A DNA stretch of 64,000 nucleotides from Patescibacteria group bacterium (GCA_023382875.1 JAHDXH010000001.1:95527-159526); one strand, 5' to 3'; counted from the stretch's first letter, positions 3,912 through 57,874 are shown. Notes: a model not told the origin generated them from the sequence alone. Translations and numbers: made by a program.

Positions 3912-3982
3912 GTTCTCCTATTTTACCAGCTCTTTTAAGGTAGGCGCTTAGTTATTTGGTTTTATCTGTATAAAATGGAAAA

Positions 3983-4012
3983 CCGCCATTGGTTGTGGCC
4001 AACGGCGGTTTT
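3983..4012. terminator. Bidirectional hairpin, ccgccattgg/ccaacggcgg, flanked by A4 and T4
   Basis: A 10-bp inverted repeat with one mismatch and a 6-nt loop lies between the small GC-rich ORF and the uvrB start. Confidence 0.35.
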
Positions 4013-4088
4013 GTGTAAGAGGACTAAGGGGCGTCCTCGAAAGAAAGTTTAGCGCCTTTTAACGCAAGGCGTGCGAGGTTCGGTCTGG

Positions 4089-4220
4089 CTAGATGACCAC
4101 TTTCCAGTAGCTGCCAGTCCATTCCCAGACGTGATTTCCATGCTGAATCTTTTGACCTTTGTACTTACCCACACACTGCGGGCAGTCGTCATCGGTTGCT
4201 TGCTGCATGTACGTCTTCAT
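4089..4220 (-). CDS. Small 43-aa ORF with a CxxC motif in a locally GC-rich patch; coding status uncertain
   Basis: The protein is MKTYMQQATDDDCPQCVGKYKGQKIQHGNHVWEWTGSYWKVVI. AAGGA lies 10 nt upstream of the ATG. GC is about 55% against about 38% for the flanks. It is below the ORF-track length cutoff. Confidence 0.3.
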   Translation of the reverse strand: MKTYMQQATDDDCPQCVGKYKGQKIQHGNHVWEWTGSYWKVVI

Positions 4221-4370
4221 CTTTACTTCGTCCTTTAACTAAACAGTCGTCAATAATCTAGTCTTTATGACTAGAACGTTATTATACAACACAAATCAAG
4301 TAGTGTCAAGTATTATAGGCCTCTTCTTTAAATAAAGCAGATTTAAGCAAAATTAAGTTACAATAAAGCT

Positions 4371-13908: not shown

Positions 13909-14026
13909 TTTGATTAATTATCAGGTCAAAATAGCTGTTTGTAAGGTTGATCTTTGATAAAGGATTGAATCTGAATCAATCGAACAAAGCAGCTATTTTG
14001 CCTAAATGATTTATAAACTTTGGAAA

Positions 14027-20733: not shown

Positions 20734-20774
20734 TATCCCATAAGTGTTGACACAAATAGGCTTATAATATATAA

Positions 20775-21053
20775 TTGGGTACTATAACTATGAATAAAAA
20801 CAAATTGTTCATCGCCATCTTATTAAGTTTTGCTATTTTTGGTTTTTCTTTTAGTGGTGTAGCCGCTGATACCTACGGTCAAGAAAATTGTACTTCTACC
20901 TATGGTCAAGCTGGTTGTATTACTTCTACCGAAGCTTCCAAGTCTGCCGTTTATTTGGCTGATACTGCCTTAGACACTCCTTCATTGATTGTCGCTGGTG
21001 GAGTCATGCTTAGCGGCATCGTCGCTTTGGTTCTCAAGAAAAAAATTGCTTAA
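20775..21053 (+). CDS. Small exported Cys-containing peptide with a sorting-signal-like C-terminus (candidate sortase substrate)
   Basis: A signal peptide is followed by a mature segment DTYGQENCTSTYGQAGCITS..., then LADTA, a hydrophobic stretch and KKKIA. The gene lies directly upstream of the sortase gene. Confidence 0.4.
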   Translation: MGTITMNKNKLFIAILLSFAIFGFSFSGVAADTYGQENCTSTYGQAGCITSTEASKSAVYLADTALDTPSLIVAGGVMLSGIVALVLKKKIA

Positions 21054-21099
21054 TTTTTACTAGATTTTTGTCTAGTTAGCTAAAAGTAGAATTCTGAAG

Positions 21100-21849
21100 A
21101 TGAGTTTGATTTACACTTCCTCTCCAGTAGTTCGCCGATCACCTAGTTACAAAAAAACTAGGCTGACTTTATTGGGTCAAAAGAAAAAGGTCGGAAATTT
21201 TCACAACAACAAATTAAGTAAAAAGTTGACCTCAGCCTTTTTAAGTCTGGTCATCGTTTTTTCACTGCTTTTTAGTGGTGTCTTCTTGATCCCAAAAATT
21301 GTTTACGCTTTTTACGATCCTAATACTTTAGTTTTGACTAACTCGGTCAACGAAACTGCTTTGGGTGGTGATGTGGAGTCTGGACCTAAACATTCTAGCT
21401 ATTTGCCAGAGATTAATGAAAATTTGCCTGAAGAAAATTGGTTAGAAATCCCCTTTATTGGCGTTAGGTCATTAATTCACGAAACAGTTGACCCAGAAGA
21501 AGCGCTTGATCAAGGTGTGTGGTTAGATCCTGCCTTTGGCGTGCCTGGTGAAGGCAAGACGGTGATTTTAGCCGCTCATCGCTATGGATGGAAATGGTGG
21601 TGGAAAGATGAATACTGGCGCTATAACTCATTTTATAACTTGCCTGAAACAGAGGTTGGCGATGTAGTTGAAATCACTTATGGTCAAAGAAAATTTGTTT
21701 ACGAAATTTACTTGGCCACTGAAGGTGAAGAGATTACGGACTTTAATGCTGACTTAATTTTGTACACCTGTAAGTATTTAGATTCGCCGATTAGATATTT
21801 CCGTTATGCTAGGTTAATCGATCCGACACAAGATAGTCAGAGCCTGTAA
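21100..21849 (+). CDS. Sortase family transpeptidase
   Basis: An N-terminal TM anchor is present. The catalytic triad context is His in ILAAHRYG, Cys in LILYTCKY and Arg in RYFRYARL. Confidence 0.7.
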   Translation: MSLIYTSSPVVRRSPSYKKTRLTLLGQKKKVGNFHNNKLSKKLTSAFLSLVIVFSLLFSGVFLIPKIVYAFYDPNTLVLTNSVNETALGGDVESGPKHSSYLPEINENLPEENWLEIPFIGVRSLIHETVDPEEALDQGVWLDPAFGVPGEGKTVILAAHRYGWKWWWKDEYWRYNSFYNLPETEVGDVVEITYGQRKFVYEIYLATEGEEITDFNADLILYTCKYLDSPIRYFRYARLIDPTQDSQSL

Positions 21850-21885
21850 TGTTGATTATTAAGACATAATTTGATATAATAAACT

Positions 21886-22158
21886 ATGAATTTAGATAAT
21901 ATGAATACAAACAAAACATTCACTTTAGCCCACGCTTTGCTCGTTTTGAGTTTATCCGTTTTATTGACCGGAGCTTTAATCGCAGCTAGTCAGGTGGCTA
22001 AGGCTGCTTGGGAATTGGAAGCTAGTAAGGCTCAAACCAAAACTCAAGCGGTTAAAAATTGTTTTGAAATTGCCAGAGGTACTAGAACCACTAGTGGTTC
22101 TAGCGCTAATGAAAATTGGCAATTGAGTCAAGTTGACCTAAACTACGAAGTTATTTAG
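21886..22158 (+). CDS. Small membrane-anchored hypothetical protein
   Basis: The 90-aa ORF has an N-terminal hydrophobic helix (FTLAHALLVLSLSVLLTGALIAA). No domain was recognized. Confidence 0.3.
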   Translation: MNLDNMNTNKTFTLAHALLVLSLSVLLTGALIAASQVAKAAWELEASKAQTKTQAVKNCFEIARGTRTTSGSSANENWQLSQVDLNYEVI

Positions 22159-22400
22159 AAGTGTTTAGGTGAAGTTGACGCCCAATAAATTGGTCTCAAG
22201 CACCGGATGAATCTTCTGGTTCATCTCATGCTGTAGATCAACAAGATCTCAGCGCTCTTTAAAAACATATTCAAAACTACGACTGGTTCACCAAGTGTCA
22301 TTTGTGGCCTTTGGTAAACCAGTTGTAGTGTGAGGAAATACCCGATCCCAACTGGTCGAAGTATCGAAGTCAAGTCAACCTATTCTCAAGGAGAACTGCT

Positions 22401-23141
22401 GTGAAGACGAAACTGTATTCCGTTCTGTTGGTGCTGGCTCTGCTGAGCCTGCTGGTGGTGCCTGCCGCTCAGGCACAGGACAATTCCGATGAGGTTTCTG
22501 GCGAAGGCTGGAGCATCACTGGCGATGTCCCCGAAGAAGTCGTCCCCAATAAGTGGGAACTGGAAGAGTCTGATGACGAATCCAGCATCTTGCCACAAGG
22601 CGGATGGATGTTCAATGCCGCCGGCGTTTTGAGTGCCGCCCGCTACGAAGACGCTGAAGCCAACGAATCGGCTGTCTGGTCTGGCGCTGGTGACGTTCAG
22701 GAACTGCTGGAAAACCGCACAGCCGAACTCATCCTGCCCGAAAGTGGCTACATGATGGTGGTCGGCGCGGGCTTCGATGTGACCTGTGGCGGCTATTCTG
22801 TCTCGTTGGAGCCGCAAGAAGACCACGCGTGGTTTCTCGTTTTGCGCGGACGCGCCGATGGTCGTGGTGACCGCAACGTGGTCTGCGAATTCAGCAATTA
22901 CACGGCGGGCGCCGTGTTAGTGACCATGTACGCTGTGCCGGTTCACGCCAGCGCGTTTTTCTCTGAAGGCTACCTCGCCGACAATATGGAAAACGCACGG
23001 GTGCGCAAGAACTGCGGCGCAACCGGTTGCTCGTACACCAGCGTGCTGGCCCTCGATGTGAACGATGGCGCTTACGGTGCATGGACGTATGGCGATGAGG
23101 AGTTTGAACTCGAAGTCACCAATGCGGTCATGCCTGAGTAA
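22401..23141 (+). CDS. Acidic secreted hypothetical protein encoded in a high-GC island (GTG start)
   Basis: The signal peptide is MKTKLYSVLLVLALLSLLVVPAAQA. AAGGAGA lies upstream. GC is about 60% with CTG/GCC-rich codon usage, unlike all neighbours. Shadow ORFs on the opposite strand are typical of high-GC DNA. Confidence 0.5.
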   Translation: MKTKLYSVLLVLALLSLLVVPAAQAQDNSDEVSGEGWSITGDVPEEVVPNKWELEESDDESSILPQGGWMFNAAGVLSAARYEDAEANESAVWSGAGDVQELLENRTAELILPESGYMMVVGAGFDVTCGGYSVSLEPQEDHAWFLVLRGRADGRGDRNVVCEFSNYTAGAVLVTMYAVPVHASAFFSEGYLADNMENARVRKNCGATGCSYTSVLALDVNDGAYGAWTYGDEEFELEVTNAVMPE

Positions 23142-23186
23142 TCAGCCCCCGGACGGTCTGCCCCCACAATTGAATATGTTCAACTT

Positions 23187-23213
23187 TCTCCTCGGGCCCC
23201 AAACCCGAGGAGA
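23187..23213 (+). terminator. GC-rich hairpin tctcctcggg/cccgaggaga downstream of the island gene
   Basis: A perfect 10-bp inverted repeat with a 7-nt loop is present. No clean U-tract follows. Confidence 0.35.
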
Positions 23214-55197: not shown

Positions 55198-55851
55198 ATG
55201 AAATATATTTTTGGTAATTGGAAATCAAATAAGAATCTAAATGGTGCTTTGGAATGGTTAAAGGACTTTGGAAAAGTTAATTCTGATAATGAAATTGTTT
55301 TGCTGCCCGCCTTCAATCTTTTGGGGGCTATTTATGAAAAGGCTCGGGAAGCTGGATTTGTTTTGGGTGTGCAAGATTTAAGCTCAATGGCTGCTGGGAG
55401 TTATACAGGAGCTGTTTCGGCAGTTAACTTGGAAGGTATGGAAGTTAAGTATGCGATCTTAGGTCACTCAGAGCGCCGTCATCACTTTGGTGAAACTGAC
55501 CAAGATGTGGCAAACAAAGTCGAGCGAGCCTTGGAAGCTGGTTTGGTGCCTGTAGTTTGCGTTGATGAGGAATATATTTTTAGTCAGGCAGCTGCTCTTG
55601 AGCAAAGTCAATTGAGTAAATGTATGGTCGCTTATGAGCCTTTGTCTGCCATTGGTACTGGTGAGGAAATGAGTGTCAAAAAAGTCGAAGTAGTTTTTGC
55701 CCAAATCAAAAAGGTTTTTGGTGAAGTTAAAGTAATTTACGGTGGAAGTGTTAATCCGGACAATGTTGATGAATACTTATTGGTTGGAGATGGGGTTTTG
55801 GTTGGAACTGCTAGCTTGGATGCAAAAGAATTTTCTGCTTTAAGTAAATAA
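55198..55851 (+). CDS. tpiA: Triosephosphate isomerase (short form, 217 aa)
   Basis: The motifs are GNWKSN, GHSERR, AYEPLSAIGTGE and IYGGSV. Confidence 0.9.
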   Translation: MKYIFGNWKSNKNLNGALEWLKDFGKVNSDNEIVLLPAFNLLGAIYEKAREAGFVLGVQDLSSMAAGSYTGAVSAVNLEGMEVKYAILGHSERRHHFGETDQDVANKVERALEAGLVPVVCVDEEYIFSQAAALEQSQLSKCMVAYEPLSAIGTGEEMSVKKVEVVFAQIKKVFGEVKVIYGGSVNPDNVDEYLLVGDGVLVGTASLDAKEFSALSK

Positions 55852-55908
55852 GATGCAATTTTGATTGCAAGACAAATTGCTTGAAACCATTTTTTTTGTC
55901 TAGCTTAA

Positions 55909-55937
55909 TTGACCTATAATATTTATTATTGTATAAT
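55909..55937 (+). promoter_or_regulatory. Consensus promoter of small paralog A: TTGACC, 17 bp, TGtTATAAT
   Basis: The element is ttgacc-tataatatttattattg-tataat. The same -35 context TTGACCTATAATA recurs upstream of paralog B. Confidence 0.5.
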
Positions 55938-55997
55938 GATTTGCTATTTAAAATGTTGTTTTAATTACCTATACCAAAGTTCTCCTGGAGTAAGGTC

Positions 55998-56216
55998 ATG
56001 ACGCAGGGTTTATATTTTGTGTACCAATCTAATGGTCAGCACACAGACTTGGTAATTGAAGCTACCGATCTTAAAGAGGCTCAGGTTAAGTTGTTTCAAC
56101 ACTTAACTGATCTGGGTTTTTCTCCCCGGATTGGAACAGCGACTGGACATGTTTTTTTACCTATTCAGGGTGAAAAAAGCATTATCTACTGCTTAAAAAA
56201 AGCCAAGGTTTTGTAA
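55998..56216 (+). CDS. Small 72-aa protein, paralog A of a tandem pair (unknown function)
   Basis: It has its own promoter, an RBS (GGAG) and a terminator. It shares roughly one third identity with 56368..56580 by eye, with the conserved pattern V(I/V)EA.D..EA..KL.QH....GF....G...G.V. Confidence 0.5.
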   Translation: MTQGLYFVYQSNGQHTDLVIEATDLKEAQVKLFQHLTDLGFSPRIGTATGHVFLPIQGEKSIIYCLKKAKVL

Positions 56217-56242
56217 TACGACATTTTTAGCTTACAATTAGT

Positions 56243-56271
56243 CCGGAGCATGCAAACTCCGGATTTTTTTG
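56243..56271 (+). terminator. Intrinsic terminator: tccggag-catgcaaa-ctccgga plus T7
   Basis: A perfect 7-bp stem is followed by TTTTTTT. Confidence 0.7.
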
Positions 56272-56293
56272 TCATTTATTTTGCTTAAAAATA

Positions 56294-56322
56294 TTGACCT
56301 ATAATAATAACTATGTTACAAT
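56294..56322 (+). promoter_or_regulatory. Consensus promoter of small paralog B: TTGACC, 17 bp, TGtTACAAT
   Basis: The element is ttgacc-tataataataactatgt-tacaat. Confidence 0.45.
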
Positions 56323-56367
56323 TAAAATCAGCTATTTAACTTACTTTTTTGTCTGGGAGAGTGAAGC

Positions 56368-56580
56368 ATGCTTTGGACAGTGCACCATCTCAATACGCAG
56401 GGAGCGCCATTTATTGTTGAGGCAGAAGACCAAAACGAGGCTTTGACCAAGTTGGGTCAGCATTTTCAAAAGCAAGGGTTTGAAACCAATCTTGGTTTAC
56501 ATGCCGGATTCGTCTCCATCAAAAACAAAGATGGAATGTTAGTGATGCTGTGTGTTGCATCAGCTACACTGATTAAATAG
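56368..56580 (+). CDS. Small 70-aa protein, paralog B of the tandem pair
   Basis: See paralog A. It has its own RBS (GGGAGAG) and terminator. Confidence 0.5.
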   Translation: MLWTVHHLNTQGAPFIVEAEDQNEALTKLGQHFQKQGFETNLGLHAGFVSIKNKDGMLVMLCVASATLIK

Positions 56581-56590
56581 GAACATCAAT

Positions 56591-56627
56591 AACCCAGATC
56601 CACAAATTCTGGGTTATTTTTTTATAC
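56591..56627 (+). terminator. Intrinsic terminator: aacccaga-tccacaaat-tctgggtt-a-T7
   Basis: An 8-bp stem is followed by a T-run. Confidence 0.65.
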
Positions 56628-56628
56628 C

Positions 56629-56651
56629 AAAAACCCCTCCTTGCGGAGGGG
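56629..56651 (-). terminator. tuf terminator: cccctcc-ttgc-ggagggg hairpin followed by U5 on the minus strand
   Basis: A 7-bp G/C stem lies immediately downstream of the tuf stop on the minus strand. Confidence 0.65.
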
Positions 56652-56680
56652 TTTTCTAGTATTTCTACTGTAGGCCAAAA

Positions 56681-57874
56681 TTATTTTACAATTTTGGTGA
56701 TTGCACCAGCGCCGATGGTGTGACCACCTTCGCGGATAGCAAATCTTAAGCCTTCGTGCAAAGCAACTGGCACAATGAGTTTAACACTCATTTTAGCGTT
56801 GTCGCCTGGCATGACCATTTCGACACCTGCTGGCAAAGTGACTTCACCAGTGACGTCAGTGGTTCTGATGTAGAACTGTGGTCTGTAACCAGTAAAGAAT
56901 GGTTTGTGACGACCGCCTTCTTCTTTGGTCAAAACGTAGACCTCAGCTTCGAATTCAGTGTGAGCTTTAGCAGTGCCGGTTTTGGCCAAAACTTGACCTC
57001 TCTCGACAGCTTCTTTTTCGATACCTCTTAAGAGGATACCGACGTTGTCACCAGCTTGACCTTGGTCAAGAAGTTTTCTGAACATTTCAACACCAGTAAC
57101 GACTGATTTTTGAGTGTCTTTGATACCGACAATTTCGATTTCATCGTTAACTTTGATGATACCGGTTTCGACTCTACCAGTGACGACAGTACCTCTACCT
57201 TTGATAGAGAAAACGTCTTCAATTGGCATTAAGAATGGTTTGTCCAATTCGCGAACTGGATCTGGGATCCATGAGTCACAAGTTTGGATAAGTTTGAAAA
57301 CTCCATCTTGAGCTTCTGCATCACCTTCGAGGGCTTTGAGAGCACTAACACGAACGACAGGAATGTTGTCACCGTCGAAGTCGTATTTGGTTAAGAGTTC
57401 GCGGACTTCCATTTCGACTAAGTCAAGAAGTTCGGCGTCATCAACCATGTCACATTTGTTCAATGCAACCACAATTTGTGGAACGTTCACTTGTTTAGCC
57501 AAGAGAATGTGTTCGCGGGTTTGTGGCATTGGACCGTCAGTAGCAGCGACGACCAAAATAGCACCGTCCATTTGAGCAGCACCTGTGATCATGTTTTTGA
57601 TGTAGTCAGCGTGACCTGGAGCGTCAATGTGAGCATAGTGTCTCTTTTCAGATTCGTACTCAATGTGAGAAAGGTTGATCGTGACTCCACGAGCAATTTC
57701 CTCTGGACTTGATTCGATATCTGCATAAACCATAGCTTTGTTAGTTTCACAAGGAACTTTCTTAGCTAAAGTTTGAGTAATTGCAGCAGTTAAAGTGGTC
57801 TTGCCGTGGTCAACGTGGCCGATAGTGCCGATGTTAACGTGAGGCTTGGCGCGATTAAATTTGTTGTCTGCCAT
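56681..57874 (-). CDS. tuf: Elongation factor Tu
   Basis: The motifs [18 protein letters not shown] and NKCD are present. Length is 397 aa. Confidence 0.97.

Follow-up and report, generated by a model that had tools for sequence, protein, structure and literature searches.

Results

Organization of the tpiA-tuf region

The window analysed in this work is a stretch of 64 kb (64,000 nucleotides), in which an earlier note had pointed to two genes of about 70 codons each between tpiA and tuf. Both genes were confirmed, ORF1 coding for 72 aa and ORF2 for 70 aa, and both are convergent with tuf, with terminators on both strands between them. The neighbourhood downstream of the pair reads tuf-fusA-rpsG-rpsL, and the flanks consist of uvrD, tpiA, tuf, fusA and other core genes. 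The features of the locus are the following.

55198..55851, plus strand: tpiA, 217 aa, the conserved left neighbour (ORF listing; Pfam TIM; NCBI name triose-phosphate isomerase)
55890..55897, plus strand: T8 run, left junction of the insertion or deletion (comparison with empty sites)
55898..56270, plus strand: cassette unit 1, 373 nt (GTC, promoter, 5' UTR, ORF1, hairpin and T7)
55909..55937, plus strand: predicted promoter 1, TTGACC-17-TATAAT (promoter scan, 11/12)
55943..55951, plus strand: conserved 9-mer GCTATTTAA, copy 1, at or near the transcript start (sequence comparison)
55987..55990, plus strand: Shine-Dalgarno site GGAG, 7 nt upstream of the ORF1 ATG (read from the sequence)
55998..56216, plus strand: ORF1, 72 aa (NCBI MCL4208160.1, KJZ63_00815, hypothetical protein)
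56240..56270, plus strand: predicted intrinsic terminator 1, 9-bp stem, 8-nt loop, T7 (-15.7 kcal/mol, z -3.9)
56271..56623, plus strand: cassette unit 2, 353 nt (tandem copy of unit 1, diverged; DNA alignment)
56294..56322, plus strand: predicted promoter 2, TTGACC-17-TGn TACAAT (promoter scan, 10/12 plus extended -10)
56331..56339, plus strand: conserved 9-mer GCTATTTAA, copy 2 (sequence comparison)
56355..56359, plus strand: Shine-Dalgarno site GGGAG, 8 nt upstream of the ORF2 ATG (read from the sequence)
56368..56580, plus strand: ORF2, 70 aa (NCBI MCL4208161.1, KJZ63_00820, hypothetical protein)
56588..56623, plus strand: predicted intrinsic terminator 2, 11-bp stem, 9-nt loop, T7 (-14.5 kcal/mol, z -5.7)
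56630..56655, minus strand: bidirectional terminator hairpin of tuf (fold and conservation; 100% conserved in most relatives)
56681..57874, minus strand: tuf (EF-Tu), 397 aa, conserved neighbour on the right, convergent with ORF1 and ORF2

The extent of unit 1 was taken from the alignment of the two units at the DNA level, and the boundaries were read off the sequence. According to the ORF listing of the window, the neighbours of each small gene are only its paralogue, tpiA and tuf; neither a partner gene nor an integrase, a repeat or another mobile-element gene was found near the pair. The GC content is 0.388 and 0.432 for the two ORFs and 0.367 for the whole insert as compared with 0.397 for the window, which gives no compositional sign of a foreign origin.

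ORF1 and ORF2 are diverged paralogous genes

The two proteins had been regarded as paralogues that are one third identical by eye, and a formal pairwise alignment had been named as the test on which this view depended. The paralogy is well supported by this test, since BLASTP aligned the proteins without gaps (E = 3e-10) and the Smith-Waterman score was 88 against 22.9 +/- 4.4 for shuffled sequences (z 14.7; none of 5000 shuffles reached 88). The figure itself had been set too high, with 20 of 68 positions being identical (29%). The proposed motif (V/I)(I/V)EA.D..EA..KL.QH....GF....G...G.V and the conserved Cys near the C-terminus are present in both proteins, and ORF2 is the more diverged paralogue of the pair.

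In the gap-free alignment of ORF1 and ORF2, the share of identical nucleotides is 0.49 for first, 0.57 for second and 0.29 for third codon positions, which shows both ORFs to be coding and their duplication to be ancient. Read from the alignment, this is the pattern of protein-level constraint with saturated synonymous sites. Both ORFs are real protein-coding genes. The changes observed within the species amount to two non-synonymous and two synonymous ones in ORF1 and one synonymous change in ORF2, too few for a dN/dS estimate.

Expression signals and duplication of the unit

A promoter scan identified a near-consensus predicted sigma70 promoter with TTGACC and a 17-bp spacing in front of each gene (11 of 12 consensus positions in unit 1 and 10 of 12 in unit 2), as had been suggested. 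The TG-extended -10 attributed to both promoters was recovered in its canonical TGn form in unit 2 only, because the TG of unit 1 abuts TATAAT directly. Moreover, both promoters are built on the same element: the 13-mer TTGACCTATAATA occurs exactly at promoters 1 and 2 and nowhere else within the window, and the promoter core ATTGACCTATAATA, the first 14 bases of the promoter counted from the base before the -35 hexamer, is the same in both units (14 of 14 positions). As promoter matches the two sites are not unique in the window, where three 12/12 sites lie elsewhere. The 9-mer GCTATTTAA comes after each -10 hexamer and has no further copy on the plus strand of the window. Each gene is also followed by its own predicted intrinsic terminator, as the earlier note had stated.

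Alignment of positions 55880-56275 with positions 56265-56640 revealed homology in the promoter and the first part of the 5' UTR, and then throughout the ORF and its terminator. The junctions are equivalent as well, both units opening with GTC right after a T-run and closing with a hairpin and T7. By this DNA comparison, the duplicated piece is a complete promoter-gene-terminator unit and not the ORF alone. Thus, the idea of tandem paralogues organized as independent promoter-to-terminator units was borne out and could be extended to a tandem duplication of the complete transcription unit.

From the base before the -35 hexamer through the end of the -10 hexamer, 24 of 30 positions are identical between the units, as against 29% of the third codon positions. 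The two terminators are homologous and differ by two compensatory stem changes (T-A to C-G and G-C to A-T), both versions folding strongly. That promoters and stems have stayed alike despite random-level third positions points to purifying selection on the expression signals. The conservation of these predicted promoters and terminators would imply, as an indirect sign, that they are in use.

Presence and absence of the pair among close relatives

For comparison we used the 90%-identity TpiA cluster, which comprises ten sequence variants, and examined their contigs. The pair is carried by only two of the ten variants, the window type (L001) and L002/L055; in the other eight, tuf comes almost immediately after tpiA and the small genes are missing. 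Conservation of the pair beside tuf, which the earlier note had proposed to test in related genomes, is limited to two variants of this cluster. Between tpiA and tuf, the window as well as L001 and L002 have 829 nt. The spacer is 101 nt long in L038 (GCA_021462985.1), L039 and L047; L048 and L054 have 152 nt, L043-L045 have 160 nt, and L040/L041 have 166 nt. In the gene-less relatives, tpiA is 86-92% and tuf 91-99.6% identical to the window. The final 47-64 nt before tuf, including the terminator, are identical in all relatives but L047, which has a single substitution, and the tuf terminator hairpin forms the fixed right anchor of a variable tpiA-tuf spacer.

The empty-site junction in L038, L039 and L047 reads ...AAATTGCTTAAAAAATAG-TTTTTT-ATACC... 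and lies exactly at the left T run. The spacer of L038 reads ...AAATTGCTTAAAAAATAG-TTTTTT-ATACCAAAAACCCC, and the window shows ...AAATTGCTTGAAACCA-TTTTTTTT-GTCTAGC at the left junction and ...GGGTTA-TTTTTTT-ATACCAAAAACCCC at the right one, so that ATACCAAAAACCCC, which comes after the T7 run of unit 2, also borders the empty sites on their right. L038 and the window therefore differ by exactly these two units, and the breakpoint lies within the T-runs of the terminators.

A midpoint-rooted neighbour-joining tree of about 3.5 kb of uvrD-tpiA had the form (L040,((L047,L038,(L039,L048)),(L002,window))), in which the gene-bearing clade is sister to a gene-less clade and the outgroup is gene-less as well. 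Divergence from the gene-less sister clade is no more than 8.5%, and the paralogues are synonymously saturated, which indicates that the duplication long predates the split of the two clades. L039 and L048 are 0.9% apart in the flank and yet have spacers of 101 and 152 nt, respectively, which marks the spacer as a replacement hot spot. The cassette array is accessory and dispensable, and the spacer has been replaced or deleted among close relatives.

ORF1 and ORF2 belong to a very narrow family

An exhaustive HMMER search of 1.84 billion representative proteins led to a third family member, P0003, a protein of 74 aa (E = 1.3e-7) that is 39% identical to ORF1. Word-indexed searches of 5.8 billion clusters, run with the two ORFs and also with the family profile, returned only ORF1, its 97% variant, ORF2 and P0003. 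Over both collections, the 1.84 billion representatives and the 5.8 billion clusters, the family thus amounts to three sequence clusters. The contig of P0003, a metagenome contig of 2436 nt (JGI 3300078620), carries a cut gene of 188 aa, a single gene of 74 aa and a convergent EF-Tu gene of 397 aa. P0003 accordingly occupies the same site beside tuf as the pair, in single copy.

We found no usable family match for ORF1, ORF2 and P0003 in Pfam-A and NCBIfam with hmmscan at E-values up to 10, no usable match in PHROGs at E up to 10, and no match of the PADLOC-DB models to four family members at E up to 10, that is, no resemblance to a catalogued defence system. No relatives were detected by a peptide-pattern search of JGI metagenome contigs, and no homologue of the pair was detected in IMG/VR viral contigs or, by tblastn, in GenBank phages and plasmids. 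The distant tpiA loci L003-L037 (at most 40% identity) hold no family member, and a literature search found no paper naming the two protein accessions. From these searches the family of ORF1 and ORF2 appears to be very narrow and previously undescribed.

Several candidates were rejected during the searches. P0004-P0006 proved to be long repeat proteins whose scores were summed from weak repeats. The faint library matches to a tRNA splicing endonuclease (0.04), phrog_35564 (0.07) and Pallilysin (0.14) were regarded as noise. The top matches among PDB sequence profiles, a designer PPR protein and protein A repeats, were artefacts of repeat summation with per-domain E-values of about 70.

Predicted structure of the products

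The AF2 model of ORF1 (pLDDT 87, pTM 0.76) contains the elements E4-10, E15-22, H25-38, E51-56 and E60-68, and that of ORF2 (pLDDT 81) has the same overall topology with one extra short strand; the alignments behind both models held only 2-4 sequences. The products are thus predicted to be compact soluble beta-beta-alpha-beta-beta domains. Isoelectric points of 7.9 and 6.4 and GRAVY values near 0 were calculated for them, and no signal peptide, membrane segment or N-terminal hydrophobic segment was found in either product. From their sequences, both would be soluble, cytoplasmic proteins.

Foldseek searches of the PDB with both models gave nothing with E < 0.29, with TM scores mostly below 0.45, and searches of BFVD gave weak matches to uncharacterised small phage proteins (E 0.015-0.1, TM 0.5-0.58). 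The predicted order of secondary structure, beta(2)-alpha-beta(2), and the size class are shared with protein G B1 and the beta-grasp fold, and faint matches to GB1 were seen (profile E 0.19; Foldseek E 0.9-1.7). By sequence and fold similarity, membership in the GB1/beta-grasp group was rejected, as hhalign of A3 against GB1 gave a probability of 1% and the TM score was at most 0.43. That group is also characterised by a mixed sheet of order 2-1-4-3 with parallel central strands; our models were compared with it at the level of the DSSP string. Unlike ThiS, MoaD and ubiquitin, ORF1 and ORF2 have no C-terminal Gly-Gly.

The residue pattern places hydrophobic or aromatic side chains on both faces of strands beta1 and beta4. 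Invariant in the family are E27, K31 and Q34, which form a polar helix face, as well as Q14 and a single Cys in the hydrophobic last strand, the latter with no conserved metal-binding partners. The aromatic strands together with the invariant E27/K31/Q34 and Q14 suggest dimerisation or docking and not catalysis. The products are probably non-enzymatic binders that would dimerise or dock via the open side of the sheet, which is hydrophobic and rich in aromatic residues, and via the E27/K31/Q34 helix face, a putative surface drawn from residue patterns and the secondary-structure string.

Discussion

Taken together, the locus is best read as a tandem array of two self-contained expression cassettes whose genes are ancient paralogues of a narrow family, present as an accessory element in the tpiA-tuf spacer, and we put the probability of this reading at about 0.6. 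Judged from its expression signals, each gene would strongly and constitutively give rise to a separate monocistronic mRNA, without dependence on tpiA or on the convergent tuf operon.

The anatomy of the units recalls the morons of phage genomes. Morons, a concept of Hendrix and colleagues whose criteria are summarised in PMC2920897, are small single genes that bring along a promoter and a factor-independent terminator, lie between genes that are adjacent in related genomes, are variably present and have differing inserts at the same site. The cassettes resemble morons in having their own predicted promoter and terminator, in being inserted between genes that are adjacent in relatives, and in their variable presence at a site where other genomes carry other inserts. 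In contrast to morons, they sit in a cellular chromosome between core tpiA and tuf and not in a phage or prophage, they are tandemly duplicated, the searches gave no phage homologue for them and their GC content is not deviant. With two of the four hallmarks present and two absent, the array works like a moron, and is not one.

A reading related to this likeness is that the pair is a foreign cassette, acquired recently from a phage or mobile element, which entered at the T-run once the gene-less sister clade had branched off. The moron-like anatomy would agree with such an acquisition, as would the tree, on which a single gain is the most parsimonious history, and the BFVD search, in which small uncharacterised phage proteins gave the best, though weak, fold matches. 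However, the searches of IMG/VR, the GenBank phages and plasmids and PHROGs gave no homologue, the base composition is inconspicuous, and no integrase, repeat or mobile-element gene lies nearby. The sole other family member, P0003, shares the chromosomal position of the pair, as would be expected from vertical descent or from allelic exchange within the lineage. We therefore consider a recent foreign acquisition unlikely.

The history of the accessory cassette array itself can be viewed in two ways. Parsimony on the small tree favours one gain, as far as the flanking sequences tell. The saturated divergence of the paralogues and the position of P0003 favour either an old presence followed by repeated loss or the transfer of an already diverged pair. 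In the first case the pair would be old at this site and would have been deleted repeatedly through the T-runs; in the second, the diverged pair would have come from elsewhere, the simplest route being an exchange of homologous spacers among related lineages. Mechanistically, recombination or slippage between the T-run and hairpin ends might account for gain, loss and duplication of units. Alternatively, homologous recombination might exchange the spacer as a whole, with the invariant tuf terminator as the point of crossing over.

The earlier note had associated the genes with the translation-factor operon and considered a ribosome-associated or stress function. The pair does adjoin tuf-fusA-rpsG-rpsL, its promoter-like sites are strong, and the family is known only from the tuf-side site, all of which might suggest abundant core small proteins that serve this operon. 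This link was not upheld: the genes converge on tuf with terminators on both strands between, they have no match to a ribosomal or stress family, the family is absent from every other bacterium sampled, and 8 of 10 close relatives do without the pair, with tuf up to 99.6% identical. Given these gene-less close relatives, a core role at EF-Tu or the ribosome is very unlikely, and nearness to tuf is uninformative on function at this locus.

Just as improbable is the proposed assignment to a HicB/UPF0150-like antitoxin fold or to another toxin-antitoxin component. The products do share with the HicB/UPF0150 N-terminal domain its size and its mixed alpha/beta character, with a single helix on a small antiparallel sheet, and Foldseek returned a weak match to 5yrz_B of the Streptococcus pneumoniae HicBA complex (probability 0.63, TM 0.37-0.48, 41-43 columns). 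The E-values of this match, 0.58 and 1.8, do not amount to similarity to a solved HicB structure, and no HicB, HicA or UPF0150 model of Pfam or NCBIfam matched at E up to 10. HicB has the strand order beta-beta-beta-alpha-beta, unlike the predicted beta-beta-alpha-beta-beta order of ORF1 and ORF2. Furthermore, no adjacent, co-transcribed HicA gene is present, and the two genes are paralogues with a promoter and a terminator each and not a bicistronic toxin-antitoxin pair.

The idea that the ORFs are spurious and the true products two small RNAs or regulatory transcripts, to which the short promoter-to-terminator units and weak Rfam matches in the cassette region might lend themselves, can practically be dismissed. 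It is at odds with the codon-position pattern and the gap-free protein alignment, with the presence of Shine-Dalgarno sites, with the confidence of the AF2 models and with P0003 as a homologue at the protein level, and every Rfam match lies far below the gathering score and on the terminators only.

With regard to function, polymorphic-toxin and bacteriocin systems offer a comparison, as they contain tandem arrays of diverged orphan immunity genes. The cassettes would resemble such arrays in encoding small cytoplasmic alpha/beta proteins, in being tandem and strongly diverged paralogues, in their strain-level presence and absence, and in their constitutive promoters, which are predicted here. 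They differ in that no toxin, secretion or Rhs/CDI-type gene lies near ORF1 and ORF2 and neither product matches an immunity family in sequence or fold; the likeness is circumstantial. As a speculation, and a tentative one, the products might have a dispensable, niche- or conflict-related role instead of a housekeeping one, for example in neutralising a toxin, much as immunity proteins do, or as a phage-related factor. Such a role would best suit small binders that are dispensable, diverge fast and are, as predicted, strongly expressed. A more far-reaching picture, in which ORF1 and ORF2 represent a fast-evolving, highly expressed conflict family of one Patescibacteria lineage, for instance orphan immunity or anti-phage/anti-host factors whose small fold may be new, seems rather improbable to us as a whole. 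In this picture the family would travel in 'cellular moron' cassettes bounded by terminators, and the T-run and hairpin ends would mediate gain, loss and duplication at a recombination hot spot with the invariant tuf terminator as its anchor.

Patescibacteria have tiny genomes with few recognisable mobile elements. If high expression, a conflict role and gain, loss and duplication mediated by T-runs were all true, the locus, as a hot spot at which self-contained units are exchanged beside a highly conserved gene, would show how these bacteria keep a flexible accessory gene pool. If cassettes were indeed shuffled through their T-run and hairpin ends, this would represent a simple mode of accessory-gene exchange for genome-reduced episymbionts, taking place beside the invariant tuf terminator. 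Independently of these considerations, our results add a well-supported, functionally blank family of small proteins. The locus moreover constitutes a clean natural contrast of presence and absence in near-identical backgrounds, which is usable in metagenomic association studies. A DNA scan of metagenomes with the tuf terminator returned only two contigs, both already known. The NCBI record that holds KJZ63_00815 and KJZ63_00820 is labelled 'Patescibacteria group bacterium'.

A second self-contained cassette

Besides the paralogous small genes between tpiA and tuf, the window holds a second small-gene cassette with the same self-contained layout:

4309..3975, minus strand: second self-contained small-gene cassette
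4309-4281, minus strand: cassette promoter, TTGACA-17-TATAAT, matching the consensus at 12/12 positions
4220..4089, minus strand: cassette ORF of 43 aa, MKTYMQQATDDDCPQCVGKYKGQKIQHGNHVWEWTGSYWKVVI, with a Shine-Dalgarno site

The ORF is followed by a strong hairpin and a T-run. Its exact 43-aa sequence was absent from the protein collection searched, and the cassette had no match in Rfam. At the protein level the ORF is kept in the relative represented by locus L051, which is about 15% diverged; the Cys pair and the WxWTGSYWK motif are retained there. Downstream, a stretch of approximately 100 nt (about 4077-3977) hardly varies at all and is better conserved than the ORF itself, a pattern suggestive of either a structured RNA element in the 3' region or a transcript with a dual function.

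The tpiA-tuf spacer in relatives without the small genes

Among the close relatives that lack the small genes, loci L039 and L048 differ by only 0.9% across the approximately 3.5 kb from uvrD to tpiA. The left halves of their tpiA-tuf spacers (101 nt and 152 nt, respectively) are nevertheless unrelated, and the tuf-proximal 63-64 nt are identical. The spacer behaves as a hot spot of recombination or replacement. Long hairpins were found in the spacers of three such relatives, and a similar one elsewhere in the window:

L048:3655-3750, L040:3655-3765 and L043:1636-1745: long hairpin in the tpiA-tuf spacer
Window, approximately 13925-13996: similar long hairpin in an intergenic region, with the loop AAAGGATTGAATC

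The loop GAAGGATTGA(G/A)TC is conserved in the three spacer hairpins, and their stems covary, with compensatory changes in 13 of the 23 predicted pairs across the three sequences. Together with the hairpin in the window, they may be copies of a structured element dispersed over intergenic regions, or members of a family of terminators.

The tpiA gene and its 3' end

The TpiA of the window (55198-55851) is short, with 217 aa, whereas over the same query range its tblastn matches, both elsewhere in the Patescibacteria and in bacteria outside that group, cover 699-732 nt, or about 233-244 codons; the enzyme of this lineage therefore appears to carry deletions. Ahead of the run of eight T residues, tpiA is followed by weak hairpins only (55852-55897; -8.5 kcal/mol, z -1.2), so that part of its transcription may run into ORF1, the first of the paralogous small genes, and end at the ORF1 terminator.

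A putative surface protein and a compositional island

Two further features lie in the region 20747-23200:

20747-20775: perfect 12/12 promoter upstream of a 92-aa ORF (region 20747-21849)
22401..23141: 246-aa ORF with an apparent signal peptide, overlapped by a GC island (22001-23200)

The 92-aa ORF has a signal-like N-terminal segment and a hydrophobic C-terminal tail, and is followed by a 249-aa ORF with the motif '...LILYTCKY...'; the two could encode a candidate surface protein and a sortase-like partner. The island has a GC content of 0.514, compared with about 0.39 elsewhere, and may have been acquired horizontally.
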